DNA from: a virus
Direction: 5' to 3' (one strand)
DNA length: 64,000 nucleotides
IMG/VR virus record: IMGVR_UViG_3300020048_000036
Location: 32,001-96,000 of that record
A program made the translations under genes and the position numbers. Below, piece after piece: positions 18,896 through 39,080 of this stretch. Every line of letters starts with the position of its first letter. Within the stretch, counting starts at the first letter, position 1. The notes under the pieces were generated by a model. That model was not told the origin of the DNA, made no database searches, and saw only the letters and a list, made by a program, of their open reading frames with translations.

Positions 18896-21800
18896 ATGAC
18901 CCAAGAAGAACTAAACCAATTACTTACTACAAATACCCCTACAACTAACGTAGCTCCACAGGAACCATTGGATTTTAACAAACTGTTATCTTCTGATGCT
19001 CCCGTAGGACAACTTATAGGAACGGAGAAGTTTATTAAGAGGGATATATACAATCCCAACTTAACCAATGCTGTTAGACCAATAGCGTTTAATGACATCT
19101 ATGCTTATACTGGCCCCAATTCAGGTTTTTTCCGTAAGTACCCTACATTTACCCCAGGTGAAAACAACGAGGTTATAAGTGCTGCAAACCAAAGTGGTTG
19201 GGAACTAACAGGTAATACATTAATGACATTCGGTACATTAATGGGTAGCACTATTGCCAATTATTTTGGTTCTACTGCTGCTAACATAGGAAAAATTGCA
19301 TCAGGTGATTATGAAAATTTCTTTGACTCTGAACTTACTGAATTTGCGGCAGGTGTTACGGAAGGGGTACAATGGAAATACCCTATTTACTCTACGGCAG
19401 AAATGCAGCAATACGAAGCAAACAATGTAGGTGCAGGGGCTTCAATAGGTAAATTCATTCCTGGTATTTCACCAAATTTTGGCAGGTACTCCGCAAGGCT
19501 TTTAGGCCAGTTAGGTTTTTCCGCAGGTACAGTAGTTACAGCCATAGGAGAAGAAATAGCTTTGGCTGCACTTACAGCAGAGGCAGGTGGAGCAGGTGCA
19601 ATAGTTAACGCACCAAGACAATTGTACAAAGTATTTAGGTCTTTCTCACAAGTATTAAAAAATGCTGATAGACTTTCAGACCTATACAAAACTACAAATA
19701 CTCTTGAGAAAGTAGGTAAGTCAGGTGTGTTTCTGTTACGTGAGGCAAATAGGGCTACAGGTGAAGCTAGGCTAGAAGCATTAATGGCTTCCGAAGCATT
19801 CAAGGTAAAAGAACTACAAGCCCTAGAAGAAAAAGGTATCTTTCCTACAGCAGAACAGCTTTTACAAATAGAGTTACAATCAGAGAAAGTAGGTAATGCT
19901 ACATTCAACTGGAACATGCCTATACTTATGGCTAGTAACATTATTATGTTAAACAACATAATAAAACCCAAGTCACTAAGTACTGGAAAACTAACATCAG
20001 AAGCCTCAAAGGTAGCTTTTAAAGATGGTGTATGGAGCACAAATAAGGAACTTATTAAAAATGGTTTCTTAAAATCCGTAGACCCTGCTTGGAACTGGTT
20101 GAAAAAAGCACCAGCGGTAACTTTTTCGGAGGGTATAGAAGAGGTAGCACAAGGTATAGGTAGCCGTGCAGCAGAACAATACTATAGTCTTCAAAATACC
20201 GATGCAGGTAAATCCAATACTAATTTTATACAATCTTTGGGAACCGAATTTTCACGTAGTTTCAGTACTGGTGAGGGTTGGGACGAGTTTGTGTCAGGAG
20301 CACTCACAGGTCTTTTGATTGGTAGTGGTCCTAACGCAATGAAAGTAAGGGAAGAGTATAGGGGCGCAACGGAAGTACGTGACCTACTTAACACCACTGC
20401 TAATGATTTAGTAAACAGTATCAACTACAAGAACCTCACAGAACAGGTTAACATGGCGGGAAAATCCGCAAATGAACTTGAAAAAGGTAATGTAAAGGCT
20501 GCAAAGGATATTCGTAATCAAGCTATGGTGGGTTTCTTCCAAGTAGCAAGGCGCACGGGAAAAGACAAAGAAGCAATCACAGAACTTATAGGTTACCTTA
20601 ACAACGCAAAAGACGAGAACAGGTTAGCAGTAGAGGAAATAACCAAGGACAAGACTATTGAGGAGTACCAAGCAGAACTTAATAAAAAATACGATGAGTA
20701 CACCAAGATAGCGGATATGTCCGAAAACCTGTTTTCAAAGGAACTAACTTCGGGGACAAAGATTGACCAAGGTGTAGCGGAGTTTGTAAAGAACCAATAT
20801 GTTACTGCTTTGATGGGCAGTTCTGATGCTCGTGAAAGGGTAGCTAGTATTAGTAGGGACCTAAATACCCTAACCCAAAACTCAAAGAACTCGTCTAAAA
20901 TAAATGAACTTACAAGGAACGTATTTGATTCCGAGGAACTTGCCCGTGTTATAGGCCAAGTAAGTTCTTCTATTGAAACTACAGAGGATTTCTTAACTAA
21001 TGTAAAAATAACCAAAGAAGAGCGTTACGCAAAGAACCAAGAACTAGAAGCGAATAGGAAACACCTTGCTAACCTACAATTGGTTAATGATGCGTTGTAT
21101 GGTACAAAAGAGAAATACTCTCCTGCACAAGCAAGTAAAAGGATTGTAGAGGCAATTAAGAATTATGACTCTAACGTAAATGTAGAGGAAGTTCAAAAAT
21201 TGGTAGATGACATGGTTCAACTTGAAACAGAGAATGAACAATTGACCTTTTTCGCCAACTACCTACACAATCCCCAATTCAGAAGCAAGTTTTATAATGC
21301 TGCAAAGGACATGCAGGATAAGTATAACAAAACACCCAAAGAAACTTCCGCACAAGAAACTGCACCGACAAGTCCAGAACAAGTAAATGAAACTTTAACT
21401 AATTCAGGACTTACAAAGGATAGTGTTGATACAGCAGTAACAGAGCTAAACAAAATCACCGAAAATGACGGGGTGTTTGAATATGCAGGTAATAGTTACG
21501 ATACAATAGAGGAAGCAAGAGAAGCAGTAGTAGAGAATTTACCAGTATCAGATAGGGCTTCCGCAAGAACAGTATTACCATCATTAGTACAACAAGCAGA
21601 AGCACAAAACGCACCACAAGAAATAGAGCGTGTTTCCACGGAACCAGTTACCCAAGCCGAATATGATAAATTCAAGGAAACCAATACAATCCCCGAAGAT
21701 GTAAGGACAAAATTATTTAATATTGACGGTGCTCTAACAACTCAAGAACAGGAGATGTTTGATTTCTTGCTTGAGGAAGATAAGAGTACCCAAACAGTAA

Positions 21801-24800
21801 CTAACACGGAAAAAGTACTTACGCCAAAAACAATGGCAGATGTACGTAAAGACCCGTTGGGATGGGGAGCTGGTTCCGATTCTGGAATATTAACTAACTA
21901 TTATAATGTAGTTGTAGGAAGGATATATGATAGTTTACCTTTTGCGCTTAAAATTTTGGGCCTAAAAACCTTACTTAAAGACTTTAAAGGAATAACCATT
22001 TCTACAATAAACCTTAATGACAATGTAATTAAGGACAATGTAAATACAATTGAAAAAGTTACGGTTGAACAAATAAGGACTGATATAGATGATAGAGGTT
22101 ATTCAGTTATCAAGGATAACAAAGGTAGGTTAATTATAGTAAGCAGGGGTAATAGGCTTGAAGCCAAAAATCTAATATCCAAACCAGTTGCAGAGGGTGG
22201 ATTAGGGTTGTATATGAACCCAAGTGCATACGGACGTTTTACGGAAGTACGTCAAGGTGGGCCAAAGGGAAAAACAATAGCTAGTTCTTTTGGTGAGGAG
22301 TCTTTTAATGTAGAATCATCCCGTGCAATAGCAACCGTTAGGAAGGGGGACAAGATTCAAGTATTCATTCCAAATAACAAATTTAACCAAGACTTATTAA
22401 AAACATTCCGCAAAGCCAAGGATGTAGAAAAAGCTTTTGCAAAACTAAAAGAAAGCCTTGTAATTGAACTTCGTAAAAACGGAGCCACAATAGGTGTGAT
22501 GAGGGCGGGGGATTACTTTAACGAGGATTCCAAAATGTCTCCAAAGGTCAAGTCATTTAGGGACAAAGCCGTAACAACCGCTTTGCTTACCCAACTAGGA
22601 CAAGAGGATATTATGATTGGTACTGTAGGTGTGTCAAGTATTGTAGCACAGCATACAGTAAATGTAAATGATAATGGTGATTATGTTTTCACCACACTTT
22701 CGGATTATGAACAATCCCAAAAGAGGAACAAGGACATCAAAATCACCTATTTTGTTGGTAATACCACCGAAACCGCTATTGATAAGAATGGTAAAGAGAT
22801 TTCCCGCAGCAGCGTTGGACGTGTAAAATCATTTATACCAAATGCTATTTATGTACAAATCAAGAACACCAAGACAGGTGAAGAGGCTTTGTTACAGGCA
22901 GTTGCGGAAGAAGCCCTAACATTTTCGCAAGAAGACTTGAAGAACAATGATTTTAAACAACAACTATCAATAAACCTACAACCCTCTGAAAGCCCATTAA
23001 TATCAAAAAGGGTAGCAATAGACGAAAACACATTCTCATCTAGTACAAGGGAAGAAACAAACAAAGCGGAACTAAGGCAAGAACTTGAAACAGCTCTTTC
23101 CGAAAGTCAAAATCTTACACTAGATTTGGGTGGAGTACAATTACCTTTAACTAATGTTGAAGCAGACTATGACTTACAAATCGTAACAGGTGTTGACCCT
23201 AATGGAAATAACCAAGTACTAAGTTTCCTTAATATAACTGGTGTATCGGAATATATAGATGTCCCGCAAGAAACCACTACAACCAATGAAGTTGTAAATG
23301 AAGAAACAACTAATGAGGTTGTGACTGACCCCACCACCACAACGGAACCACTTGAAGAAAGTATTCCTGAACTAAATACTGAACAAAAAGAAGATTGGAT
23401 AAAAGAAAACGGAGAGGTAGGAAAAACATATACGTTAGAAGATGGAACAACATTAGTTATCCAAAGGAAAGATGAAAACGGAACCGTAATTACAAAAGGT
23501 GGTTTCCTAATCAGGTTCAAACCAGATGGCTCCGAAGAAAGCATAGATATTCTAAAAACACTTGAAGAAATAGAAAATACAACTTTTTCGGAAGAAAATC
23601 TCTATAATATTTGGATTTCTCAAAAAGAAGGTTTATCTTTGAGGGATGAAATGATATTAGTAGTAAACAGTGAAAGAATAGCTAAGTTTAAAAAGACACA
23701 AGAACAAGTAATAAAGGACTTACAAAACGGATATGACAACTATCTTCCAATTGGCCTAAAGGATTTGTTAACAGCTTTAAATGTTAGACCAAATGAATTG
23801 ATGTTGGTACTTTCGCTAACCAACTTGGACTTGGTTCAAAAAGGAATAGAGGTGACTTCATTAGAACAACTAATGACAGAAGCCCAAGTTCCAACCGAAG
23901 TATCAGAAAGTATACAAGAGGTATTGTCTTTTGGAAGTTATATAGCTTTGTTCAATTTAGTAACAAGCGGAATACAAGTAAATGTAAGCAACAGAAAGTA
24001 TGAGCAAGGAGTACAACTTATGATGGAATTTGCCGACACTAACGCAGAAAATGCTATTAATGTTGAGATTTCCCAACAAGACGAGGAACTTATGGAAGCG
24101 ACCAATAAATTCGCAAAAGGCTTTAAATCACTTATGGGAAAACAAGGCTTGTTCGTGAAGGGATTAAACACATTAAGTGAATTAGCTAGTGACCAGATTA
24201 AGAGTGTTGCTACTGCTGTTAAAAACTTTGTGCTTACAAGCAATTATGACCAAGGGGATAATTTCATTAAGGCTTTTGTAACATTAAATCAAGCACTCCG
24301 TCCACATGGACTTGAAGTAAACTTGGAAAACCTGATAAAAGTAGAACCAAAAGGAATGTTTGACGTGGGCGTTGATTTCATACAGATTAACGATACAAAA
24401 AACTTCCTTAAAGAGTTCGATGATATATTGATGCAAAAGGAAAACCAAGAAAGGATTACCAACGGTAAGAACACAATTTTGATTAAGAGGGATAACGGTG
24501 GTCTATTTGAACTCCCAATACGTCAGATAAGCACTGTAATGAACGAAAACGAACAAAACGATAGTGTATACTTAAATGACATTTTAGAGCCTGTAGGTGT
24601 CTCTATTGAGGATATTTACGTAATTGCTAACCATACTGTTAACGGAAACGCAACTAGTCTTATTGAACGTAGTATTAGGAGGGTTAACCAAGAAACATTG
24701 GAAGCAAGGGAATCCTTTGTAGTTAATAGGGAACCAACAATAAATGGAAGTTCGCAAGAGGAATATTTTAACAAGAGCAAAGTAGAGAAAGAAGTAAAAA

Positions 24801-24817
24801 CCAAAACTTGTAGTTAA
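18896..24817 (+). CDS. Giant putative ejection protein with hydrophobic channel-like segments
   Basis: 1973 aa. Gly/Ala-rich hydrophobic segments near the N-terminus (GFSAGTVVTAIGEEIALAALTAEAGGAGAIV; FVSGALTGLLIG). Its only Cys is penultimate. Confidence 0.65.
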   Translation: MTQEELNQLLTTNTPTTNVAPQEPLDFNKLLSSDAPVGQLIGTEKFIKRDIYNPNLTNAVRPIAFNDIYAYTGPNSGFFRKYPTFTPGENNEVISAANQSGWELTGNTLMTFGTLMGSTIANYFGSTAANIGKIASGDYENFFDSELTEFAAGVTEGVQWKYPIYSTAEMQQYEANNVGAGASIGKFIPGISPNFGRYSARLLGQLGFSAGTVVTAIGEEIALAALTAEAGGAGAIVNAPRQLYKVFRSFSQVLKNADRLSDLYKTTNTLEKVGKSGVFLLREANRATGEARLEALMASEAFKVKELQALEEKGIFPTAEQLLQIELQSEKVGNATFNWNMPILMASNIIMLNNIIKPKSLSTGKLTSEASKVAFKDGVWSTNKELIKNGFLKSVDPAWNWLKKAPAVTFSEGIEEVAQGIGSRAAEQYYSLQNTDAGKSNTNFIQSLGTEFSRSFSTGEGWDEFVSGALTGLLIGSGPNAMKVREEYRGATEVRDLLNTTANDLVNSINYKNLTEQVNMAGKSANELEKGNVKAAKDIRNQAMVGFFQVARRTGKDKEAITELIGYLNNAKDENRLAVEEITKDKTIEEYQAELNKKYDEYTKIADMSENLFSKELTSGTKIDQGVAEFVKNQYVTALMGSSDARERVASISRDLNTLTQNSKNSSKINELTRNVFDSEELARVIGQVSSSIETTEDFLTNVKITKEERYAKNQELEANRKHLANLQLVNDALYGTKEKYSPAQASKRIVEAIKNYDSNVNVEEVQKLVDDMVQLETENEQLTFFANYLHNPQFRSKFYNAAKDMQDKYNKTPKETSAQETAPTSPEQVNETLTNSGLTKDSVDTAVTELNKITENDGVFEYAGNSYDTIEEAREAVVENLPVSDRASARTVLPSLVQQAEAQNAPQEIERVSTEPVTQAEYDKFKETNTIPEDVRTKLFNIDGALTTQEQEMFDFLLEEDKSTQTVTNTEKVLTPKTMADVRKDPLGWGAGSDSGILTNYYNVVVGRIYDSLPFALKILGLKTLLKDFKGITISTINLNDNVIKDNVNTIEKVTVEQIRTDIDDRGYSVIKDNKGRLIIVSRGNRLEAKNLISKPVAEGGLGLYMNPSAYGRFTEVRQGGPKGKTIASSFGEESFNVESSRAIATVRKGDKIQVFIPNNKFNQDLLKTFRKAKDVEKAFAKLKESLVIELRKNGATIGVMRAGDYFNEDSKMSPKVKSFRDKAVTTALLTQLGQEDIMIGTVGVSSIVAQHTVNVNDNGDYVFTTLSDYEQSQKRNKDIKITYFVGNTTETAIDKNGKEISRSSVGRVKSFIPNAIYVQIKNTKTGEEALLQAVAEEALTFSQEDLKNNDFKQQLSINLQPSESPLISKRVAIDENTFSSSTREETNKAELRQELETALSESQNLTLDLGGVQLPLTNVEADYDLQIVTGVDPNGNNQVLSFLNITGVSEYIDVPQETTTTNEVVNEETTNEVVTDPTTTTEPLEESIPELNTEQKEDWIKENGEVGKTYTLEDGTTLVIQRKDENGTVITKGGFLIRFKPDGSEESIDILKTLEEIENTTFSEENLYNIWISQKEGLSLRDEMILVVNSERIAKFKKTQEQVIKDLQNGYDNYLPIGLKDLLTALNVRPNELMLVLSLTNLDLVQKGIEVTSLEQLMTEAQVPTEVSESIQEVLSFGSYIALFNLVTSGIQVNVSNRKYEQGVQLMMEFADTNAENAINVEISQQDEELMEATNKFAKGFKSLMGKQGLFVKGLNTLSELASDQIKSVATAVKNFVLTSNYDQGDNFIKAFVTLNQALRPHGLEVNLENLIKVEPKGMFDVGVDFIQINDTKNFLKEFDDILMQKENQERITNGKNTILIKRDNGGLFELPIRQISTVMNENEQNDSVYLNDILEPVGVSIEDIYVIANHTVNGNATSLIERSIRRVNQETLEARESFVVNREPTINGSSQEEYFNKSKVEKEVKTKTCS

Positions 24818-24818
24818 C

Positions 24819-27800
24819 ATGGCTTGTACAATTAAAAGAGATGAAAACGGAATAATAAGTGTACTAGCTGAAAATGGTAATAAATCACTATTATACCAAT
24901 CTATACTTAAACTGCCCTTCACCAAAAGTGAAGAGGATGCGCTTAATTATTACCAAGCAGCGTTAAAATACAAAGGTTCAGATTATCTAGTTGACATTAA
25001 TAATGAGCCTATTTTAATGTTTGCCTCACTTTCCGCATCAAACACCCTCGCTCTACCAAATAAAACAGTACTTACGTCATCTTATACAGAAGCACTTGCC
25101 CAAGATAAGGAGCAGAAAGGTATTGAAGTAGGATTTTTAAAGAAAAGCAAACCACTTGATTTAGGTCAAATCTCCGACAATAACTTCTTTTCAAAAATGC
25201 GGAACATTTCCGCAAGGACCAACGGTCAAGTGATAGGACACAATGAAAGCGGAACAATACTTGTATCAGACCCATCAACAAATAACTTCAAACCAATTAC
25301 AAAAGTAAACCCCCAAGCAATTGATAATACTCTAGGTGGTTTTATACAAAATTTGGTAAGCAGTAACTTAATCAAAGCCGAGAAAATCCCCGCAACAAAC
25401 CTACAACAAGAAGAATCAACTGTAGTTTTTAAGGTATTTGATATGGGAAACAACGACATATCAGTAATGGCTATTGAGGAAGGAAGAAAAATAGGTGTAC
25501 TACGTTTAATAAAGAAAGGGGATATAATCCAAGTACGTGAAGTAAGAGTAGATAAGGGTAATAGAAAGAAAGGTATAGGAAGGGAACTGTACTTTACTGC
25601 AAGGGAAGAACTGGGCCAGGATATATACTCAGATGCTTTCCATTCCCCCGAAGTTATTATGTTGTGGGAGAGTTTAGTACGTGATGGTTTTGCTGAAAAA
25701 ATAGGACCCAAAACTACACCTGTTACTAAAAGAACAGAGGAAGTAAGTAAAGGTGTAGAAGCCGTTAGGAAAATAGCAGCAGAGTATAAAAAGTTGAACA
25801 AAATTAAAGGAACTGCACCTCTTGTTGTTACTGCGCTGGAAACTACTGTTTCAGAAGAAATGGCAAGAGAGTACGAGTTAGTAGAAGATAGGCCCAATAA
25901 CCCAGAAGTAAAGAAATCATATGCTGCTTTAATTGCAGAAACCATAGCACAGTATGATTTTATTGTAGGTAAAGGATTACAAGTAGAAAAATATCTAGGA
26001 AAAGGGGAACCTTACCAAGATTCTAAAGAAATGTTGGAAGATTTAAGAACCAATAATACTCTTAAATTCTTACCAAACGATGAGGCATTTGGCGAAGGTG
26101 CAGAAATATACAAAGACAGTATTGGTTTACAACCTAGTGGTAGATTTTTGGCAGATGGTTACCAATTAACTAACTCAGAAGTATTTAGGATTGTACATGA
26201 TTACTTTGGGCATGGTATACTGGGAAATCAATTTGGGGCAATCGGTGAAGAAAATGCAACACTACAACACTTGGATTTATACTCTGACGAAGCAAAACCT
26301 GCTGTTGTGTTCCAAACAAGGGGACAAAATAGTTGGGTAAACTTTTCTGGGGAAAATAAAGAAGTATTTTCAATGTTTGCCGAGGCAAAAAAGCTTAAAA
26401 ATGAAGGTAAATCAGAAGAGGCAAAAAAAGTTTTAGATAAAGCAAGGGAAGCGTTTAAATTTGCAAAACCAAAAGAAGGTATATTTAAAAACAAATACAA
26501 TTTCAAAAAATATGACACAGCAAGAAGAATCAGAGAGCAAGAACAAATCGAAAGAGCTAACGATGCCAGAACGAATGAAAGTAATGACTTACGAAACTCA
26601 TTACCAATCATTAGTAAAAACAATGTTACAACGAGGGGCATCAACAGAAGAAATAGACAAGGAAATACAAAAATACAGTCACATGTATTAAAAAATGTAA
26701 CTGAGGTATCTTTGTCCAGTGAAGCCCAAGAAGCCATTAAAAAGGCTTTTCCCAAAATAACGACTTTTCCTAAAATATTTGAAATAAAAGATGGAGCAGT
26801 ATATAGGGACTTACAGATAAAAGGACTTGAAGGAGTACCTATGTCTAGTTCTGTAACTATACATTCTACCGAAGAGTACAACACTATGAGGATGTTTGTA
26901 ACTGAGGATGGTTACACAGGTATTACTATAACAAAAGATGGTCACTTAGGAGGTGCATTTAGTAGTGAAAAATCAGGTAGAAGTGCAGATTTAGCGCAAC
27001 TAATGGTTATAGGGGTTAAGGAAGGAGCTACTAATGCAGAAGCATTTGATACATTTTTACCCGATTACTATACTAAGTTTGGGTTCAAAGCAGTAAGTAC
27101 TGTAGCTTTTAATGAAGAAGTTGCCGAGGGAAATGGTTGGAACTACGAAGAGTACAAAGGATACAATAACGGTAAACCTGATATAGTTCATTTTATCTAC
27201 GATGGGGGAGATAGGGCCACAATAGAGGAAAGGTTAGACCAATTTGACACGTACAGTGATTACCAAAAAGAGGAAGTTAAGAAGTTTGATAAAAACTCTT
27301 ATGATGAATCATATAAGTACATGGAAGTAGAGGTTGTAAAAAGGTACAACTTTGAGAAAGAACAAAATAGAACAGGGTACAAACTAACTAGTGTTCCAAG
27401 TGATATTAAATTCCAAACCTCTACTGTAGAAGAAGTTGTACAAGAAGAAGTAATAGATGAAGTAATAGGTAGGTTAAAATCAGCAGGACTAACAAGCAAC
27501 ATATTTCAACTTTCGCAAGAAGAAATCACCCAAAAATTAGAGCAATTAGGTAGCACACCTGTAAACAGTATTTCTAAAGGCTTTATAGTAACGGAGAACG
27601 GTCAGAAAAACGTGTATCTTAATAAAGATACTATGACATTGGATACACCTTTGCATGAGGTTGCGGGACATGCCATGCTGGATTTTGTAAAGGTAAAGGC
27701 AAGGAATATCTATGATAGGGGTATGACATTGGTAAGCCAAGAACTCCGCAAAGAAAATTCAAGCATCCAAGACGTAATAGATTATGTAAGAACCACACAA

Positions 27801-30293
27801 CCTACTTTAACAGGGGAAGCGTTAAATAATGAAATCCTAGCTGAATATATTGGTAGGGTAGGTTCAGAACTTATACAGAACCAAAAAAATCCCGCACTAA
27901 CAAAATGGCTAAGTGATTTATGGAATTTTGTAAAGAAATCCTTGGGTATTTTTGACAAAAACTTTGACCTAAACAACGCTACAATAAGGGATTTTGCGGA
28001 AGCAATGAGTATATCTACACTTAGAGGAGATAACGTAGCAGAACAGGCTCAAAACTACTTTGGAAGGGTTGCCGACAGACTTCCCCTAACCCTAGCGGTG
28101 TTCAATACAAAACCTTTCCAAGACTTAATAGGAAAACAAGTAAATCCAGTTACAATACAACAACTCCTAAACCAATCAGGAATAAAACAAATAGAAAAAG
28201 ACCTGATTAACCAAATAATCACAGACAACTACACTGGACAAAAGAAAATAGACTACAACGAACTAGAAGCAACGGTAAGGGCTAATATAATGCCATTAGA
28301 AAGGGTTATCACATCATCCTACGCTAATTATGGTATGAAAAATCTAGGTGATGGTAATTACGGTGATGCAAACACGCTTATCCTTAACGCACCTATAGAA
28401 CATGGAATTACAGGTCACTTTTCGGATGCATTCAAAGCCAGTGGTCGTAAAAACATCAAATACATACCTAAGCAATTAAACGACAATACTTGGGTAGCAG
28501 TAGAGGAAGGGTATGAAAGCCAAGCAAACAATAACAATATTTATCAGTTTGTAGGTACTGCTGGAACAAAAGAAGCTGTTGATAATTGGATTAATAACTA
28601 TGATGGAATAAAATATATTAAAATTGAAGAAGGAGTAAAAGTAAGGTATGAAGATAGCAGGGGGGTAATGCGAGATGCAACAGTGGTGTCTATATCCGAT
28701 AACAACGTAAAAGTAATAAATATAGTAGATGGTGAGTTTTACGAAGCGGATATATCAAATTTTAGACCTATTGGTTTAGATGCTGTACAAGAAATAAACA
28801 AAGGCATGTTTGGTCATATCCGTGTATGGCAAGACAATACAGATTTCTATGTAGCAGAGCTTCAATCGGACTACTTTCAAAAATATAATGCGAGGAAAGA
28901 GTTTTTGGAAAATAATGAAGAGTTTAAAGAAATAAATAAAGAGTATAATACTCAAAAAGAAGAAATACAAGTTGATAAATTAAACTATAAACGACTTAAA
29001 GCAACAGAGGATGCGTTAGCTATTATAGAAAGTAATAGTAGAGTTAAAATTCAGCCTTATAAGTTGGAATTATACGATGGTACTTTAGACGAGGAATATT
29101 TATGGATTTTTGTTGATGGTAACCCTATAATTAAAGGCAGAGTAGCTACTAGTACTGGATATAGTACAGATTATCAAAGGGATTATTTGATAAAAGATAG
29201 AAACCTTGAATCTTTGTTTGAGTTGCTTGGGGAAGATTTCCAAGTTAGTTTCAACAAACAAATGCAAAAAAACCTTGATAATTTTGACCTTCAAGGGAAG
29301 TTATTAGAAAAAGAATACAACAAAAAAGTAGAAGCGTTACTAAGTGAATTACCACTACAACAAAAACAATTCATAGCATCCCAAAAAGAATGGGAAAAAC
29401 GTATGGTAAGGGAAGCTATAAAAGAAGCAGCATTATCAGGAGCAGAGACACTAAGGTTCCCTACACCATATACGTTAAGTGTTATTGAGGGTTATATTGA
29501 GGGTGCAAATGGTAGTGCTGTAGAGTTAGTAGGTACTAATGAGATAGGACAAGACGTTTACTATCTTGGTGAATTATATACTATAATGAATACTTACTAT
29601 GATGACAGTATAGACATTGCACCAGCAAATCAAGTAGATTCTGTGGATTTAGATACTTACATAGAATCAGAACAAGAGTTTAGGGTTGGTGATTATCTAT
29701 ATGAAATAACTGTTGGTAATACATATTCTTACAAAGAAGTTAAAAATTTATTTTCGGAAGCCCAACTTTACCTTGAAAATGAGTTAGAGAGTATAGCAGA
29801 AGAGCAGGGTATAGAAGTGGATGAAGCAAAATTAACCTTAACTCAAGGTATGGTTGATGATATTACGGAAGATATAAAAAGAAGTATTAAAGAGAATATA
29901 GATTATAGCCCTGAAAATTATTTTACCGATATGGGATATGATAATGTAGTGCTGTTTAATAATACTATTTATTATACTAGAGGTAGTGTTTCACTAGAAA
30001 ATGTATCTACTGCTACGAATCTTTCTGATAAAGATGATTTTACTATTGAAAGCCTAGATAACACCCAACAAACAGTAGCTAGAAAATATGAAGAGATAGC
30101 TGCAATTCTTACAAAAGAAAGGGGTGAAGATAATGTGGAAATTATAACAGATGATAACGGATTTGATTGGTATGAAACCAAGATACTATCATCGGAAACC
30201 CAAAACCCAGTTATAGCTTTTCAAAAATCAATTGACCAAGTTGTATCGGAAATGATTAGAAGCGGAGAAATTTCAGCAAACTGTAAATTATAG
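24819..30293 (+). CDS. Giant polyvalent ejection protein (GNAT-like, zincin-like and ELQSD domains)
   Basis: 1824 aa. Motifs: VRVDKGNRKKGIG (GNAT motif A), FRIVHDYFGH, AFDTFLPDYYTKFGF (second GNAT-like region), TPLHEVAGH and YVAELQSD. Confidence 0.7.
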   Translation: MACTIKRDENGIISVLAENGNKSLLYQSILKLPFTKSEEDALNYYQAALKYKGSDYLVDINNEPILMFASLSASNTLALPNKTVLTSSYTEALAQDKEQKGIEVGFLKKSKPLDLGQISDNNFFSKMRNISARTNGQVIGHNESGTILVSDPSTNNFKPITKVNPQAIDNTLGGFIQNLVSSNLIKAEKIPATNLQQEESTVVFKVFDMGNNDISVMAIEEGRKIGVLRLIKKGDIIQVREVRVDKGNRKKGIGRELYFTAREELGQDIYSDAFHSPEVIMLWESLVRDGFAEKIGPKTTPVTKRTEEVSKGVEAVRKIAAEYKKLNKIKGTAPLVVTALETTVSEEMAREYELVEDRPNNPEVKKSYAALIAETIAQYDFIVGKGLQVEKYLGKGEPYQDSKEMLEDLRTNNTLKFLPNDEAFGEGAEIYKDSIGLQPSGRFLADGYQLTNSEVFRIVHDYFGHGILGNQFGAIGEENATLQHLDLYSDEAKPAVVFQTRGQNSWVNFSGENKEVFSMFAEAKKLKNEGKSEEAKKVLDKAREAFKFAKPKEGIFKNKYNFKKYDTARRIREQEQIERANDARTNESNDLRNSLPIISKNNVTTRGINRRNRQGNTKIQSHVLKNVTEVSLSSEAQEAIKKAFPKITTFPKIFEIKDGAVYRDLQIKGLEGVPMSSSVTIHSTEEYNTMRMFVTEDGYTGITITKDGHLGGAFSSEKSGRSADLAQLMVIGVKEGATNAEAFDTFLPDYYTKFGFKAVSTVAFNEEVAEGNGWNYEEYKGYNNGKPDIVHFIYDGGDRATIEERLDQFDTYSDYQKEEVKKFDKNSYDESYKYMEVEVVKRYNFEKEQNRTGYKLTSVPSDIKFQTSTVEEVVQEEVIDEVIGRLKSAGLTSNIFQLSQEEITQKLEQLGSTPVNSISKGFIVTENGQKNVYLNKDTMTLDTPLHEVAGHAMLDFVKVKARNIYDRGMTLVSQELRKENSSIQDVIDYVRTTQPTLTGEALNNEILAEYIGRVGSELIQNQKNPALTKWLSDLWNFVKKSLGIFDKNFDLNNATIRDFAEAMSISTLRGDNVAEQAQNYFGRVADRLPLTLAVFNTKPFQDLIGKQVNPVTIQQLLNQSGIKQIEKDLINQIITDNYTGQKKIDYNELEATVRANIMPLERVITSSYANYGMKNLGDGNYGDANTLILNAPIEHGITGHFSDAFKASGRKNIKYIPKQLNDNTWVAVEEGYESQANNNNIYQFVGTAGTKEAVDNWINNYDGIKYIKIEEGVKVRYEDSRGVMRDATVVSISDNNVKVINIVDGEFYEADISNFRPIGLDAVQEINKGMFGHIRVWQDNTDFYVAELQSDYFQKYNARKEFLENNEEFKEINKEYNTQKEEIQVDKLNYKRLKATEDALAIIESNSRVKIQPYKLELYDGTLDEEYLWIFVDGNPIIKGRVATSTGYSTDYQRDYLIKDRNLESLFELLGEDFQVSFNKQMQKNLDNFDLQGKLLEKEYNKKVEALLSELPLQQKQFIASQKEWEKRMVREAIKEAALSGAETLRFPTPYTLSVIEGYIEGANGSAVELVGTNEIGQDVYYLGELYTIMNTYYDDSIDIAPANQVDSVDLDTYIESEQEFRVGDYLYEITVGNTYSYKEVKNLFSEAQLYLENELESIAEEQGIEVDEAKLTLTQGMVDDITEDIKRSIKENIDYSPENYFTDMGYDNVVLFNNTIYYTRGSVSLENVSTATNLSDKDDFTIESLDNTQQTVARKYEEIAAILTKERGEDNVEIITDDNGFDWYETKILSSETQNPVIAFQKSIDQVVSEMIRSGEISANCKL

Positions 30294-30296
30294 ATT

Positions 30297-30344
30297 ATGG
30301 GATGTGGATGTAGTAAACCTAAAAAACCAAAACCAAAGAAGTAA
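30297..30344 (+). CDS. 15-aa Cys/Lys-rich micropeptide MGCGCSKPKKPKPKK (not in the ORF track)
   Basis: ATG 30297 to TAA 30344 fills the gap between two giant genes, 3 nt after one stop and 1 nt before the next start. Confidence 0.6.
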   Translation: MGCGCSKPKKPKPKK

Positions 30345-30345
30345 C

Positions 30346-33300
30346 ATGGCGTGTACTTATAATTTCAAAGGAATAGAATATAATACAAAGAAACAACTTG
30401 CTGATGCAGTTGCACTTGAATTTACTAACACTACAACATCACCTAACAAAATGATGTTTGAGGTTAATGGTAAGGTAGGTGAAAACGAAGCAAGACTTTC
30501 CGCAAGAAACAGGTTCGGAACAGACGAATTTCTTACTTTTGTAGAAAAAGAAGATAAAACGTATATGTTAGTAGATGAACGTCTGTTTAACGAGCAGACA
30601 GGTTCACAACGTCTAATATACAATGACCAAGGACAACTTGTAGAAGTGGATATTGATGAAATGATTAACAAGATGAACAGAGGTCAATTAAAAAACATCA
30701 ACGGCTCACTTTATGATACAATCCAAGCAAGGATAGCGGATAAAATGATAAAATCCGCAAAGGAAGAGTTAAAGAACGAGCAAGAAGGAACTACCCAAGA
30801 TTTAATGGATAGCCTTGCAGATTTTGCAGCTAACATGGGGATAACCGTAACAACCCTTGAAGAGTACAAAGCTAGTTATGAGGAACGTAACGGTATTCCA
30901 ATAACCACCCAAGCACTAGCAGATATATTCAACAAAACCATTGCATTAGGTGAGAACGCTACATTAGAGGACTTTACGGAAGAAATAGCCCACTTCGCAG
31001 TTAAATATTATAAGAACCAAGATGAACTTACACGCCTATTAGAAAAGGTAAACCAAACAGGTACCTACCAAAGATACGCAGAACAATATAGGACTGCTTA
31101 CTCAAAGGACTATTCAGGTGAAGCACTTGAAAATAAAGTACGTGAGGAAGTGTTAGGTAAACTTTGGGCAGAGAATATATTAAATAACTACAACACACAA
31201 AACAAAGGTCTTAACGAAACTGGAATCATAAATAAATTACAAGAGCTTTTTAATAGGTTCTTGGATTTGTTCCGCATTACAGATAGTAACCAAGCGTTTT
31301 TTAGGGAATTTGGCAAGACACTAGATAATCTAGCACAACAAACCACGTCCAAAAGGTACGAAAGTTTTTCACCTGTTGATTCTAAAGAAGTATACTATAG
31401 CCTTTCCGCAGAACAAAAGAGCGTAGAAAAGAGTTTAACTAATATACATGGAGATTTAGTTAATAAATATAAAGCAATACACAAAGATAACAAATCTTTA
31501 TTAAGGGACAGGAACACAAGACTTGCCGAAATAGCAGATAACATTAAAAACGCTTTTTACCTAAAAGCCATACAACGTGTTATAGCTATGGAAACAGATG
31601 ACATGCGAAAAGCCTTTAACGCATTAAGTAATGCTAGGATTGCAGTAGAGGAAATCTTGGACAAAAAGAAACAACTAGAAGGTTCCACATATGTAGCCCC
31701 AACCCAAGAAGAAAAGAGTAACATGATTGCCAAGGAACTAGGGGACGTTAATATAGCTAACCTAACCGTATTTAACCGTAATGTAGATGAGGTAATAGGC
31801 AAGTTACGTGCGGATATAGATTTTATCGCCAAAAACGATAAAAATATTAAGAGGGAAGACATAGCTTCCGTAAACCGCAGTCTTGAATCATTGGCTAGGT
31901 TGAAAGGTGAAGTTGGTCCAGATTTGCTTAGTATGCAACGCAATCTCGTGTACAACCTTATTTTGAAGAACTACCTTAATGAAGGTATAAGCATGGAACT
32001 AGCTAAAACCTACGCTTCCGATGCTGTTACAAATAACATGAAGGATATTGGTGTACTTGTTAGTTTTTTCTTTAGCGCAGGTACATATGGTAATCCAATA
32101 GTAACCGCAGTCAATGCTTATGTAAACAAAGCTAATTCTAACAGGGATAACCGCACAAGAGCATTCCTACAACTTTTTGCAGCAAAACAAGCAGAACTTA
32201 AAGTAGGTAAAGATGATATGGCTAAACTATGGTCTGACGGTTATATGTTGGATGAAGTTGACCATAACAAGCTTGATAGGGATTACGAAAAGCTAAAGAA
32301 AGATATTGCAACTAAGAAAGAGGAAGCAATAACATTAGCTAAAGGTAACGAAGCCCTTATTATAGAAGCCGACATAAAAGCAAGTGAAGCCCTAGAAAAA
32401 CTACAGAAAGAGTGGGAGCTACCTAAGTTTACCCAAGAATTTGAGAACAGGACTAGGAATAGGGTAGGTGGAATAAATCCAGTTACCAAATCAAAGTATC
32501 GTTCAAAAGCAGCCCAAGATATAATCAGGACTTTTTCATCCGATTCTAGGGCTATAATGAATAAATATAAAAACCCCCTTGAAATAACCTCTGCTGATAA
32601 AAACAGGCTACAAGACATTGCTAGTGACAGGGCTAGGGCTGCTTCATTATATGATGAGAACCAAAACCCCAAGACAGGGACAGCTTTAGGTATTGCACTT
32701 GACTTGCAGGATTATTATGAAAATAATAAAGCCGAGATTTCCGAGCAAGCCAAGAAAAGGTTTGAAATGGAACGGTTGAAAATCAAAAGTACCAAACCAT
32801 CAGAATATAAAAAATGGCTTGAATTTTTCGCATATCAAAAGTATTCGGAAAAAGACCTACCTAATGGTGAGTTAGACAGGGTTGTAGATAATGAAGCTAC
32901 TGAAACCGTGTTCAAAGACAAACAGGTTGTATGGGAAGAAATTAAGGATAGTATTGTTATTCCTAACCTTACAGGTGAACCCTCCTTCCAACAAGCCTAC
33001 GATGCCTTAAAAAGCAAACGTGAGCAGTTAATTAAGCCTTTTCGCAAAGTAAGGAACTCATCTGAAATAGATGGTATTGCTATTGAGAATGAGCCTGAAC
33101 TACTAAGTGTGTTAGAGGAAATAGATAGTAATTTACGTCTGTTCAAACTTGACGAAGGTACTGCACGTACTTTTAAAAAGACACCTAACGAAGCCTTTAA
33201 AACACAATACAAAAGGATATTGACCCGTAGTTCAAGGGAACAAAGGGATTGGTTGTTGCGTAACGCTGAACCCGACACTATTAGGGGTGGTTTCAAAATG

Positions 33301-35550
33301 GAAAACGGGTTTCCAATCCCAACTCAACGTCACTACAGTAAGTACGAGCTTATAAACGATGACGGTTCTTTAGTTGAAAAAGAACTTTCACCTACGTTGT
33401 ATTGGGAGATGCTTGTTTCCGACAAGAACACCCTTAACCCCGAATACGACACTTTCTTTGAGGGAAAAACAAGACAATACAACAAACCAATTAAGGAAAA
33501 GTACAAGAACCAAAAATACTTCGACATTTTCCGCCCAGACAGTAACGGTGTACCAACTCAAAATGTAAATTTACATAAGATGAGGCAGTTCCTTCTTGAC
33601 CAAAAATACGCTATGGACAGGAACGTAGGAAGGGTAACCAATGCTTATTATTTATTACCCCAAGTAAGACCATATACAATGGAAGCACTTACAAGTGTGG
33701 CCAAATTAAAATCAGCAGCATCAAATGTTGTGGGTGTAGTGGATAATTACGATGAGGACTTTAACATCAACACTATAGGTTTAGGTAGGAAAGGCGAGGG
33801 AACTTTTATACCCCTCCACTTCCACGTAAGGGCAGAAGACCCAAGTATTTTGTCCACGGACTTCTCGCATATGTATACTAATTATGCTGCAATGACCTAC
33901 AACCATGTGGAAAAGTCCAAGATACTTATAAACATGGAAATCCTAAAAGATACGTTAGGTGAGTCATACTTTGAGGGTAAGGGTCAAGGTAAAGGTACTA
34001 GGGTTTATAAAGCAGCTACAGAATACCTTTCAGCTCACATGTATGGAAACAGGTTCGTAGAGTTAAAGGAGTTTACCGTGAAAGGTAAGAAAATCTCCAC
34101 TACAAAACTTGTTAACAACGTAACCGCTTGGCAGGTAGTGAAGAACCTTGGATTAAGTATATACACACCAGTTGTAGGTGGAGTTGCGGCAAAGATACAG
34201 TCTAATATTCTTGCAAATGAGGGTGCTTATTATACTGACCAAGGTAAGGTTAGGGCTAACAAAATGATGAAATATGGTGCATCAATAATAGGTACTGCAA
34301 GGGATGTGGGGGAAGTGATGGCTAAGACTTATTTGGGTAAATTGGACTATTTTTCGGGAACTGGAAACTTAGAGAATGATTTGTCAAAAGGAATGTTCGC
34401 ATCCAACCAAATTGAACGTACATTTAAACAAGCGGATTTCTTTTTTGCCCACTACCAAGCAATATCAAAACTTATCCGTGTAGAGACTACTATTGCGGTG
34501 TACGATAATTTTAGGCTTGTAGATGGAGAATTTATAACTTTCCGTGCCTTTGAGGATAGGCTTGTTAAAAGTAATATAGGAATTTCCCGCAAAGAAGCGT
34601 TGGAACAATGGAAAAACTATCAATCACAATCAGTACTGGATTTCCTAAAAGAGAATGAAACAGGTATAGAGTTTGATAGGGAAAAACTATACAACGCAAA
34701 GTTTACGGGTAATGTTACGGAACTAAAAGCAAGGCTTGATATTGCTACAAAAACAGCAAACGATATAGTAGAAGGTCAAGTATCTGGAACAGACACCACC
34801 GTAGCCTCACGTAACCCCCTTGTAAAGTTCTTGTTCACCATGCACAGGGGATACTTCCAAAGATTCATGGAACGTGCCTTTAAACCCCGTCAATTGAACC
34901 CGATTGTAGGCGCAGAGGAAGAAGGAACATACAGGACTTTTGCAAACGTATGGGGCAAGTCTTGGGACGGGCTAAACGCAAAGGAAAAACTTATCTTGTT
35001 CTTGGGATATTTCAAAGCATTTGAACAGCACGATAAGGTAATGACTAAGTTAGGTCTTGATACGGTTGATGTGATAAATACCCGAAGGATACGTAGGGAT
35101 ATGAGGATGTATGCTTTTGCTTTTACACTATATCTTTTAGCTAATTTGCTTGCAGATGATGAGGATAGGGAAGATGATTTCTTTACCCAATATGCAGCTT
35201 ACGTAGCAAGTAGGGTATTTAACGAGACAGGTTCAGTACAGTTGCCTTTTGGTGCTATGGATGCACTTAAACTAGTGGAATCCCCTTCAAGCGGTTTCGG
35301 ATTCTTGGAAGACCTTTTAGGATTGCCTGGTTTTATAGTAAAAGAGAAGAAGGAAATTACCAAAGGAGCATATACTGGTGTTGACCCGTGGACTAGAGGC
35401 TTTATACGCCTTACTCCTGCAAAAAACATTATTGAACCAATGTTGTCAAACCCACGTAAATCAAATCTCTTCTTCCGTCTTAATACAATAGGACCAGTAA
35501 ATGAAAGCCTATTTGAAAATACAAGTGATTTTGTTTACGACAGAAATTGA
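30346..35550 (+). CDS. Giant putative ejection protein with degenerate zincin-like motif
   Basis: Start corrected to ATG 30346 (MACTYNFK, parallel to MACTIKRD of the previous gene). 1734 aa, FTEEIAHF motif, helical C-terminal half. Confidence 0.65.
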   Translation: MACTYNFKGIEYNTKKQLADAVALEFTNTTTSPNKMMFEVNGKVGENEARLSARNRFGTDEFLTFVEKEDKTYMLVDERLFNEQTGSQRLIYNDQGQLVEVDIDEMINKMNRGQLKNINGSLYDTIQARIADKMIKSAKEELKNEQEGTTQDLMDSLADFAANMGITVTTLEEYKASYEERNGIPITTQALADIFNKTIALGENATLEDFTEEIAHFAVKYYKNQDELTRLLEKVNQTGTYQRYAEQYRTAYSKDYSGEALENKVREEVLGKLWAENILNNYNTQNKGLNETGIINKLQELFNRFLDLFRITDSNQAFFREFGKTLDNLAQQTTSKRYESFSPVDSKEVYYSLSAEQKSVEKSLTNIHGDLVNKYKAIHKDNKSLLRDRNTRLAEIADNIKNAFYLKAIQRVIAMETDDMRKAFNALSNARIAVEEILDKKKQLEGSTYVAPTQEEKSNMIAKELGDVNIANLTVFNRNVDEVIGKLRADIDFIAKNDKNIKREDIASVNRSLESLARLKGEVGPDLLSMQRNLVYNLILKNYLNEGISMELAKTYASDAVTNNMKDIGVLVSFFFSAGTYGNPIVTAVNAYVNKANSNRDNRTRAFLQLFAAKQAELKVGKDDMAKLWSDGYMLDEVDHNKLDRDYEKLKKDIATKKEEAITLAKGNEALIIEADIKASEALEKLQKEWELPKFTQEFENRTRNRVGGINPVTKSKYRSKAAQDIIRTFSSDSRAIMNKYKNPLEITSADKNRLQDIASDRARAASLYDENQNPKTGTALGIALDLQDYYENNKAEISEQAKKRFEMERLKIKSTKPSEYKKWLEFFAYQKYSEKDLPNGELDRVVDNEATETVFKDKQVVWEEIKDSIVIPNLTGEPSFQQAYDALKSKREQLIKPFRKVRNSSEIDGIAIENEPELLSVLEEIDSNLRLFKLDEGTARTFKKTPNEAFKTQYKRILTRSSREQRDWLLRNAEPDTIRGGFKMENGFPIPTQRHYSKYELINDDGSLVEKELSPTLYWEMLVSDKNTLNPEYDTFFEGKTRQYNKPIKEKYKNQKYFDIFRPDSNGVPTQNVNLHKMRQFLLDQKYAMDRNVGRVTNAYYLLPQVRPYTMEALTSVAKLKSAASNVVGVVDNYDEDFNINTIGLGRKGEGTFIPLHFHVRAEDPSILSTDFSHMYTNYAAMTYNHVEKSKILINMEILKDTLGESYFEGKGQGKGTRVYKAATEYLSAHMYGNRFVELKEFTVKGKKISTTKLVNNVTAWQVVKNLGLSIYTPVVGGVAAKIQSNILANEGAYYTDQGKVRANKMMKYGASIIGTARDVGEVMAKTYLGKLDYFSGTGNLENDLSKGMFASNQIERTFKQADFFFAHYQAISKLIRVETTIAVYDNFRLVDGEFITFRAFEDRLVKSNIGISRKEALEQWKNYQSQSVLDFLKENETGIEFDREKLYNAKFTGNVTELKARLDIATKTANDIVEGQVSGTDTTVASRNPLVKFLFTMHRGYFQRFMERAFKPRQLNPIVGAEEEGTYRTFANVWGKSWDGLNAKEKLILFLGYFKAFEQHDKVMTKLGLDTVDVINTRRIRRDMRMYAFAFTLYLLANLLADDEDREDDFFTQYAAYVASRVFNETGSVQLPFGAMDALKLVESPSSGFGFLEDLLGLPGFIVKEKKEITKGAYTGVDPWTRGFIRLTPAKNIIEPMLSNPRKSNLFFRLNTIGPVNESLFENTSDFVYDRN

Positions 35551-36508: not shown

Positions 36509-37168
36509 ATGCTAACACCACCATGTACGGGACATGAATTTGAAGCAGAGGAATATAAAACAACAACTATGGAAATAGAAAAAGACTTGTTGGTTGGGGT
36601 AAAATATATACCATCACCAAACATAAGTGGTAAATTCAAAATCAATCTACCAGATACAATAATTATTCACTATACTGCTGGTTCAAGTGCTTCTTCGTCT
36701 ATAAAAACCTTAACCACCAAAGGCACACAAGCATCAGCACATATAGTTGTAGGGAGGGATGGGGAAATAACGCAACTAGTACCATTTGATACAATAGCTT
36801 GGCATGCTGGAAAGAGCGAATATGAAGGCCGTAAATCCTTTAACCAGTATTCTATAGGTATAGAGATAGATAATGCGGGATTATTGACAAAAGAGGGTAA
36901 TACATACAAATCTTGGTTTGGTAAGGAATACCCAAAAGAAGAAGTTGTAGAAGGTATCCATAGGAACGGAAATAAAACCCAATATTGGCACAAATACACG
37001 GATAAACAAATACAAGCCGTAAAAGAACTTTGTTCAACCTTAACAGAACATTACTGTATCAAACACATACTTGGGCATGAGGAAATATCAGTTGGGCGTA
37101 AAATAGACCCAGGGCCAGCGTTCCCATTGGATGAATTGCGTAGTGAATTGGGATATAAAGATAAATAA
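36509..37168 (+). CDS. N-acetylmuramoyl-L-alanine amidase (Amidase_2 type), endolysin
   Basis: Motifs IIIHYT, SAHIVV, AWHAG, SIGIE and LGHEEIS.GRKIDPG. Confidence 0.92.
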   Translation: MLTPPCTGHEFEAEEYKTTTMEIEKDLLVGVKYIPSPNISGKFKINLPDTIIIHYTAGSSASSSIKTLTTKGTQASAHIVVGRDGEITQLVPFDTIAWHAGKSEYEGRKSFNQYSIGIEIDNAGLLTKEGNTYKSWFGKEYPKEEVVEGIHRNGNKTQYWHKYTDKQIQAVKELCSTLTEHYCIKHILGHEEISVGRKIDPGPAFPLDELRSELGYKDK

Positions 37169-38030: not shown

Positions 38031-39080
38031 ATGAGATTACTTTTTATCTGCAAAGAACGAAACCCTTACACCTTCGGTCAAGAAAAACAACTAAAACAAG
38101 AAGGTTCTTACGGATTGATAAATTCCTGCAAGCTAGTGGGAAAATATCTACAGACTCAAAACCCTAAACTAGAATATCAGGTAATAACTGTAGTTGATAA
38201 CAACGGTATAGATAAAGAAGTACATAACTACAAACCAACTCACGTATTCATAGAAGCACTATGGGTAGTTCCCGAAAAGTTTGACGTACTACTGCCGAAA
38301 TATCCTCATATTAAATGGTCTGTACGCATACATAGCAAAACACCATTTCTCGCAAATGAAGGGATAGCATACGAGTGGATAGCGAGGTATTTGGACATCA
38401 AGAAAAAGTACAATAACTTTACGCTTGCAGGGAATGATTATGAATACAGTACTGATATGAACATGGTATACCGTACTAACCTAATGGATACATTACCAAA
38501 CCTTTATCCAGTAAATACCCGTTTCAAAGTCAGTTGCAAGTGGGATAACAAACATATTAACATAGGATGTTTTGGTTCGCTAAGACCTATGAAAAACCAA
38601 CTACAACAAGCCGTAGCAGCTATAATGTACGCTAACGCAACAGGTAAGATACTTCACTTTCATATTAACGGTAACAGGGCAGAACAGAAAGGGGAACAAG
38701 TGTTGAAGAACATGATTGCACTTTTTGATAAAACACCACACCAACTTGTATTACATGGTTGGTATCCGCACCAAGAGTTTGTAAAGTTAGTTAAGACAAT
38801 GGATGTGGGATTACAAGTAAGTTTCTCGGAAAGCTTCAATATCGTAGCAGCAGACTTTGTAGCAAATGATATACCTATTGTAGTAAGTGATGATATACGT
38901 TGGGCCAGTAATTGCTATATGGCAAAGACAACTGTTGCGGAGGATATAATGAAGAAGATAGATTTTGCTTATAAGTGGAGAGGGTTAAATTTTCAATACC
39001 TAAATAAACTAGGACTTGACAAGTATAATAAAGAAGCAGCCACATTTTGGAACAAATACTTAAACAAACCAATACAATGA
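38031..39080 (+). CDS. GT-B fold (GT4-like) glycosyltransferase
   Basis: IGCFGSLRPMKN and MDVGLQVSFSESFNIVAADFVANDIPIVVS resemble the GT4 nucleotide-sugar binding motifs. Confidence 0.75.
   Translation: MRLLFICKERNPYTFGQEKQLKQEGSYGLINSCKLVGKYLQTQNPKLEYQVITVVDNNGIDKEVHNYKPTHVFIEALWVVPEKFDVLLPKYPHIKWSVRIHSKTPFLANEGIAYEWIARYLDIKKKYNNFTLAGNDYEYSTDMNMVYRTNLMDTLPNLYPVNTRFKVSCKWDNKHINIGCFGSLRPMKNQLQQAVAAIMYANATGKILHFHINGNRAEQKGEQVLKNMIALFDKTPHQLVLHGWYPHQEFVKLVKTMDVGLQVSFSESFNIVAADFVANDIPIVVSDDIRWASNCYMAKTTVAEDIMKKIDFAYKWRGLNFQYLNKLGLDKYNKEAATFWNKYLNKPIQ

Follow-up and report, generated by a model that had tools for sequence, protein, structure and literature searches.

Facing terminal cysteines in giant cargo proteins of crAss-like phages and their possible joining by end-to-end disulfides

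Introduction

The window analysed here is a 64,000-nucleotide stretch, bases 32001–96000, of the 130,638-base-pair IMG/VR virus genome IMGVR_UViG_3300020048_000036, which has direct terminal repeats and belongs to a crAss-like phage. Its plus-strand structural block ends in six successive genes (13188–35550) for proteins of 359, 656, 882, 1973, 1824 and 1734 amino acids (aa). The last three proteins are almost free of cysteine (Cys), and the few that they have are placed so that a Cys at the C-terminus of one protein faces a Cys at the N-terminus of the next. The pattern is real and non-random, and is part of a rule that holds across crAss-like phages. We suggest that the facing Cys form end-to-end disulfides which tether injected cargo in the mature particle. 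This reading is drawn from comparative data and from analogy with a solved structure, and we put its probability at about 0.68; a function of the resulting thread in ordered passage out of the particle is less certain.

crAss-like phages are among the most abundant human gut viruses and are also common in the sea. Their particles have to pack and inject megadaltons of protein, among which is the enzyme that starts infection. A simple rule for predicting covalently joined protein ends from sequence offers a direct hypothesis for the cultured phages phi14:2, phi17:2 and crAss001. It accounts for the division of the same cargo among two, three or four genes and for its fusion into a single giant gene, helps to assign the start codons and limits of genes in phage genomes from metagenomes, and suggests a natural route for loading foreign proteins into a phage particle. 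In the window phage it would place a polyvalent effector protein within the injected thread.

Cysteines of the window gene block

The six genes of the block, all on the plus strand, are as follows, with the last three described as links of a chain.

13188–14267, plus strand: Cys-free 359-aa protein, which opens the Cys-depleted block (translation).
14264–16234, plus strand: 656-aa Cys-poor virion-type protein with a single, orphan Cys, C4 (MRKCS) (translation; match to phrog_36695).
16238–18886, plus strand: Cys-free 882-aa protein, upstream of the chain (translation; the homologues in loci L030 and L031 are also Cys-free).
18896–24817, plus strand: first link, 1973 aa, single Cys C1972 (codon 24809–24811; C-terminal KTKTCS), no N-terminal Cys.
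24819–30293, plus strand: middle link, a polyvalent-type protein of 1824 aa with C3 (codon 24825–24827; N-terminal MACT) and C1822 (codon 30282–30284; C-terminal SANCKL) as its sole Cys.
30346–35550, plus strand: last link, 1734 aa, single Cys C3 (codon 30352–30354; N-terminal MACT), no C-terminal Cys.

An initial annotation of this DNA, made from the sequence alone, had listed the Cys of the 1973-, 1824-, 1734- and 656-aa proteins, and each of its counts and positions agrees with the translations. It proposed a computational count as a check, and this gives 5 Cys for the block, all of them terminal. The block comprises 7,428 aa, for which about 131 Cys would be expected (Poisson P = 3.5e-49), and all five lie no more than 4 residues from a protein end (chance P = 1.1e-11). 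The Cys frequency is 0.07% in the block as against 1.77% in the other open reading frames (ORFs) of the window, and the 2123-aa protein next to the block contains 39 Cys. A Cys content far below the phage proteome frequency, which defines the Cys-suppressed ejection proteins of N4-like phages, is thus also found here.

Both junctions between the links are tight, at 1 and 52 nucleotides (nt), and both downstream genes open with ATG GCx TGT AC. The longest ORF of the last link starts at GTG 30304; we chose ATG 30346 as the start because the homologues of the last link all begin M-x-C. Megablast of the region against phage genomes found no match, and neither did phmmer searches of the three giant proteins against PDB sequences.

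Pairing of terminal cysteines across genomes

Pairing was analysed in the gene blocks of 21 genomes, made up of IMG/VR and metagenome loci, contigs fetched via exact proteins, and GenBank phages. The unit was the junction between successive Cys-poor proteins, at which the presence of a C-terminal Cys upstream was scored against that of an N-terminal Cys downstream. Among 62 junctions, both Cys are present in 33 and both absent in 26, while the upstream Cys alone is present in 1 and the downstream Cys alone in 2 (Fisher p = 4.6e-14, uncorrected for relatedness). One of the discordant junctions is that of the window's 656-aa protein, discussed below, and the other two are in locus L008, where the chain is interrupted by a Cys-free 583-aa gene and a Cys-rich insertion sequence (IS)-like gene; the totals of C- and N-terminal Cys in this locus are still 3 to 3. 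The initial annotation had staked its proposal on the conservation and pairing of terminal Cys in homologues. Both are borne out, the pairing by these counts and the conservation by terminal Cys that are kept down to about 25% identity.

The order within a chain is always the same: a protein with a C-terminal Cys only, then between zero and two proteins with Cys at both ends, then a protein with an N-terminal Cys only. Chains of 2, 3 and 4 proteins carry 2, 4 and 6 Cys. Examples are the two-link chain of L027 (...GDCP / MANPC...), the three-link chain of L029 (...NTEC / MSCN...ELMC / MSNKC...) and the four-link chain of L009 (...FDC / MAFC...KKC / MAIDC...YFSC / MNCT...). Giant proteins that stand alone, with no partner, have no terminal Cys: these occur in L028 (2457 aa), L006 (3889 aa) and L018 (2490 aa).

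The same arrangement is found in named phages. In phi14:2 the single Cys of gp67 (1797 aa) is its last residue (...NTIC). The virion RNA polymerase gp66 (2180 aa), which has been crystallised, contains no Cys other than C3 and C2179, and C3 is the sole Cys of gp65 (1421 aa). In phi17:2 the corresponding ends are gp39 ...GFMC, gp38 MASC...LKCN and gp36 MSCK..., and in the crAss001-like phage PhiCrAssBcn18 they are gene 22 ...LRCNS, gene 19 MSKRC... and gene 20 MAKKC.... Phages cr118_1 and csAssE-Sib also fit the rule.

Chance, a gene-calling artefact or a signal at the nucleotide level, such as translational coupling, could also be put forward, in view of the tight junctions of the window and the shared opening of its downstream genes. 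However, the P values range from 1e-11 to 1e-49, and the gaps in relatives range from an overlap of 17 nt (−17) to >600 nt, many of them holding unrelated inserted genes (ferritin-like, HU-like DNA-binding, and GIY-YIG/HNH-type homing endonuclease). Both TGT and TGC are used for the terminal Cys among homologues, and the flanking residues vary. Because both codons occur and the gaps differ so widely, the signal must be at the protein rather than the nucleotide level. PhiCrAssBcn18 encodes its first link on the strand opposite to that of the other two, so that gene adjacency is not the cause of the pattern either. The comparative data therefore already refute this explanation, to which we give practically no weight. 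The junction gaps of relatives are hot spots for such insertions, and inserts are located at 12724–13218 in L001, 17305–17808 in L027, 5055–5333 in L010, 6847–7392 in L008 and 6342–7088 in L014.

In three loci the middle and last links are fused: L003, L008 (2520 aa) and L010 (3723 aa). In these proteins the C-terminal domain of the middle link, with the conserved sequence ...GFDWYE...NPVVAF, passes straight into the region that corresponds to about residue 70–90 of the free-standing last links. The alignment shows that neither the Cys tail nor any of the N-terminal Cys module is left in the fusions. A peptide bond takes the place of the two elements at once, as would be expected if their sole job were to join two chains.

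Conservation of the first and last links

BLASTP relates the 1973-aa first link to phi17:2 gp39 (5e-12) and PhiCrAssBcn18 gene 22 (2e-9). Its homologues (25–53% identity, 1,299–3,212 aa) all have exactly one Cys (7/7), which is the last or penultimate residue, with the C-terminal sequences ...KTC, KTCS, KTCN and KTCK.

The last link matches phrog_37651, 'virion structural protein' (E = 3.6e-45), and BLASTP relates it to phi17:2 gp36 (4e-28) and to PhiCrAssBcn18 gene 20 (8e-11), which is annotated as 'putative RNA-polymerase subunit'. With tblastn it matches giant structural proteins of the Cellulophaga phages phi17:2 and phi4:1 and of csAssE-Sib, as well as 'putative RNA-polymerase subunit' genes in many crAss phages; a direct comparison with phi14:2 gp65 gave no match. 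Each of ten homologues found by word search has exactly one Cys, at position 3 or 4, and C3 is invariant in 22 aligned sequences, down to 20% identity.

In a wider survey, the C-terminal 710 aa served as query for a full HMMER scan, and 371 cluster representatives were found. Cys were counted in 120 sequences taken from the best 150 of the 371, each of at least 1,200 aa, starting with M and having <50% mutual identity. A Cys is present at positions 2–7 in 114 of the 120 (69 at position 3, 27 at 4 and 14 at 5), whereas not one carries a Cys among the 8 residues nearest to the C-terminus. No further Cys is present in 103, and the internal frequency is 0.014% (32 in 225,711 residues). The idea that Cys is merely tolerated at protein ends was rejected, since 95% conservation at positions 2–7 is far above the neutral expectation. 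Many C-termini of last links are strongly acidic (...EEDEL, ...DEIEEE, ...SLDEEE), and this may be a second conserved end signal.

The orphan cysteine of the 656-aa protein

The fifth Cys of the block, C4 of the 656-aa protein, was listed by the initial annotation alongside those of the three giants. The residue is real, yet in the homologue from L031 (52% identity from residue 1) its place is taken by Ile and there is no Cys. No lone C-terminal Cys that could face it was found among the proteins of the whole genome. The IMG/VR search found no relatives of this protein, the homologue having come via L031. C4 therefore lies outside the conserved rule, and we do not include the protein in the chain.

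The orphan bears on a further explanation, in which each terminal Cys acts alone and the pairing results from common ancestry. A Cys might, for example, anchor its protein to the portal, to the capsid or to some other protein of the virion, mark it for processing, or be captured by Dsb enzymes of the host periplasm. Besides the orphan itself, this could draw on the fact that the pairing statistic over 21 genomes is uncorrected for phylogenetic non-independence. Against this reading, the numbers of C- and N-terminal Cys are equal in each complete block despite a variation from two to four links, and the first link never has an N-terminal Cys nor the last link a C-terminal one (0/120). Fusion removes both elements together, lone giants have no terminal Cys, and the orphan is not conserved. 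We therefore regard independent action of the terminal Cys as improbable.

The middle link and its terminal elements

The middle link has about 100 homologues, many of which contain ART-PolyVal (PF18760) and related domains, with PF18838 and PF18762 also present. Clear homologues have Cys at positions 3–6 and/or in the last 1–4 residues and almost nowhere else. PF18760 and PF18838, as carried by these homologues, are domains of the polyvalent proteins of phages and conjugative elements; we found no description of terminal Cys couplers for that class. The 1824-aa protein looks like a string of effector-like modules, with matches to 'lysin', 'RelA/SpoT' and 'large polyvalent protein' features. 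The window's copy passes no Pfam cut-off, its matches being sub-threshold ones to GNAT and two PHROGs of unknown function. Judged from its sequence, the middle link of the window phage is probably a polyvalent effector-type protein. No D[FYWLIVM]DxD polymerase motif was found in the giant ORFs of the window or of the rest of the genome. For lack of a DFDxD-type motif, we call none of the window giants a virion RNA polymerase.

In three close relatives, L025 (8463–9854), L030 (9602–10942) and L031 (16507–17850), the middle link is shrunk to 446–463 aa, and both Cys ends are kept. These short proteins consist of the N-terminal module and the conserved C-terminal end (...SGEI.A.CKL), with ART-PolyVal in one of them. 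It is therefore the ends that are retained, while the payload between them is exchanged or lost.

Two small elements belong to this part of the chain.

24819–24980, plus strand: N-terminal Cys module of about 50 aa in the middle link (alignment of 23 N-termini).
30297–30344, plus strand: 15-aa ORF MGCGCSKPKKPKPKK in the 52-nt junction of the middle and last links (relatives' ORFs in the same slot).

The consensus of the module is M-x(1-3)-C-x-[IV]-x(5)-G-x-[IV]-x-x-V...G-x-x-S-x-L-[YF], followed by a helix, and Cys is the sole invariant column in the 23-sequence alignment. A Pfam scan of the 23 N-termini identified no shared family. The AlphaFold2 model of the module has a predicted local distance difference test score (pLDDT) of 81 and places a β-hairpin (4–8/11–16) directly after the Cys. 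Foldseek found no match to this model in the PDB at E <= 0.001.

The 15-aa ORF is a short version of a basic ORF of 46–48 aa with two Cys, which occurs in L025 (9858–10001), L030 (10947–11093) and L031 (17854–17994). In these relatives it has the form MPKNSK.GRC...AI.ICQ... with a K-rich tail, and its stop overlaps or abuts the next ATG. It is absent from more distant relatives and is thus restricted to this subclade. The putative polyvalent effector as middle link and the small junction ORF are the phage-specific features of the chain.

Comparison with known systems

The closest likeness in signature is to the cyanopodophage A4 (A-4L), for which cryo-electron microscopy (cryo-EM) shows a disulfide between gp27 Cys1715 and gp26 Cys5 in the pre-ejectosome (PMC12002296). 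These are the sole Cys of the two proteins in the A-4L genome, Cys1715 being the third residue from the end of gp27 (1717 aa) and Cys5 lying near the start of gp26 (1114 aa). The window resembles this at both junctions: the upstream Cys is near the C-terminus (C1972 of 1973 and C1822 of 1824, the latter in a protein that has an N-terminal Cys as well), and the downstream Cys, at position 3–5 in the shared signature, is C3 in both the 1824- and the 1734-aa proteins. A4 differs in belonging to another family (Saffermanviridae) and in having one such junction only, and the A4 paper formulates no general rule and describes neither a chain nor a pattern of fusions (PMC12002296). BLASTP of the window proteins against A4 gp27 and gp26 gave no match at E <= 0.01, and the likeness is therefore one of signature and not of ancestry.

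Within the Crassvirales, the cargo blocks of phi14:2 (gp67-gp66-gp65) and PhiCrAssBcn18 (genes 22, 19 and 20) follow the same Cys grammar as the window, and the first and last links of phi17:2 and PhiCrAssBcn18 are homologous by BLASTP to the window's 1973- and 1734-aa proteins. Mass spectrometry has identified the proteins of these blocks in virions, and the cargo is believed to unfold in part upon ejection. By analogy, the three giants of the window are probably packed in the particle and injected. The difference lies in the middle link, which in those phages is the virion RNA polymerase with DFDxD (DFDID at 1361 in phi14:2 gp66) and in the window is probably polyvalent effector-type. The crAss001 atlas and the phi14:2 polymerase preprint make no mention of cargo Cys.

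The injected giant proteins of N4-like phages (N4 gp50; DEV gp71, gp72 and gp73) are likewise almost Cys-free, and this suppression has been explained as the avoidance of unwanted disulfides while crossing the oxidising periplasm (PMC11445570). Those proteins are, in contrast to the window's, without any Cys (0.00075%), and hence have no terminal pairs and no chain.

The initial annotation knew of no description of such a mechanism. That view has to be revised, as a disulfide from the C-terminus of one ejection protein to the N-terminus of another has been described for A4 (PMC12002296) and Cys suppression for N4-like phages (PMC11445570). A search of the full-text literature, with most subscription journals outside its range, found nothing on a crassvirus-wide Cys grammar, on the fusion rule, on the N-terminal module or on chains that reach four links. 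A bond of this kind has been seen once by structure, in A4.

How the facing ends may be joined

On the reading that we favour, C1972 of the 1973-aa protein would bond to C3 of the 1824-aa protein, and C1822 of the latter to C3 of the 1734-aa protein. With bonds 1–5 residues from the chain ends, the three proteins would turn into a single thread, of about 5,500 residues and with hardly any branching. Such a thread would hold the proteins together during packing, in a fixed order and a 1:1:1 ratio. It may then pass through the tail partly unfolded with its order kept, and the reducing cytoplasm would separate the linked proteins again.

The initial annotation proposed a head-to-tail chain joined by disulfides or by zinc (Zn). 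The head-to-tail pairing is strongly supported by the comparative data; as to the chemistry, disulfide is the likeliest and Zn is not favoured. One reason is that the pair is the invariant unit, with 2, 4 and 6 Cys for 2, 3 and 4 proteins. In addition, the same signature in A4 is a disulfide by cryo-EM, and the crAss001 virion contains inter-subunit disulfides while its cargo must partly unfold through tail constrictions (PMC10172136). Two fragments, the last 124 aa of the 1824-aa protein and the first 130 aa of the 1734-aa protein, were co-folded with a separate alignment for each; the score of 0.09 (mark 0.32) argues neither for nor against binding.

If the ends were instead held together by a metal ion (Zn, Cu or Fe) bound to both facing Cys, the good ligand properties of thiolates would be put to use, and in the subclade of the window the two Cys of the small ORF would bring the ligands at the second junction to four. 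Two thiolates alone make a weak site, however, and there is no conserved His or further Cys near the ends. The small ORF is absent in most lineages, and both the invariance of the pair and the solved case of A4 point to disulfide. We consider metal bridging unlikely.

Two other chemistries were rejected. One Zn(Cys)4 hub shared by all three proteins is incompatible with chains of two and four proteins, which have 2 and 6 Cys. Split-intein or native-chemical-ligation chemistry does not fit because the Cys is not residue 1 and there is no intein-sized flanking element.

A more serious alternative accepts that the ends are joined and differs on the purpose of the bond, which would serve the architecture of the particle, as part of a pre-ejectosome-like core or in setting assembly stoichiometry, and the thread would play no part in getting the proteins through the tail. 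The A4 pre-ejectosome is a pentamer whose outer ring is stabilised by the disulfide, and the A4 authors read the bond in this way; furthermore, the present data do not bear on exit order. On the other hand, the location of the Cys 1–5 residues from the ends, together with the purge of all others, corresponds to the needs of a linear polymer that can be threaded, whereas a structural clamp could sit anywhere in the chain. The fusions, which form single polypeptides of 2,500–4,000 aa, show that a continuous thread is viable. A purely architectural role is thus a possibility to be taken seriously, though the less probable one.

Several points weigh against the proposed disulfide tethering. Particles are assembled in the reducing cytoplasm and neither thioredoxin nor glutaredoxin was found in this genome, so that oxidation would have to be spontaneous and to follow release. 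No such bond has been observed for any crAss-like phage, and the packaging and injection of the proteins rest on annotation and on mass spectrometry of distant relatives. The window has an odd number of terminal Cys, five, of which the fifth is not conserved, and the two-Cys small ORF in the second junction has no place in a simple pair model. Finally, in PhiCrAssBcn18 gene 19 the 'C-terminal' Cys is 9 residues from the end and there is one internal Cys.

A wider and rather doubtful extension of the disulfide reading is that the terminal elements form a portable coupler. The N-terminal Cys module of about 50 aa and the short Cys tail would plug any payload into the injected thread, the small two-Cys peptide would bridge or cap the thiols, and splitting and fusion of genes would be interchangeable. 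Some lineages would carry the RNA polymerase as payload, the window phage an exchangeable polyvalent effector, and close relatives a bare 446-aa adaptor.

Other genes of the window

Upstream of the block, the adjoining proteins of 297 and 256 aa encoded at 87–980 and 1162–1932 concentrate 9 of their 11 and 9 of their 10 Cys, respectively, in the first 75 residues, and these Cys-rich starts contrast sharply with the Cys-free block downstream. A 369-aa ORF at 3416–4525, inside the structural block, matches the transposase family phrog_506 (E = 1.7e-104) and looks like an IS200/IS605-type TnpB-like element. The cargo block is followed directly by an Amidase_2 lysin at 36509–37168 (1.9e-30), and a group-1 glycosyltransferase-like gene, whose match is below the Pfam cut-off, also lies after the cargo block at 38031–39080.

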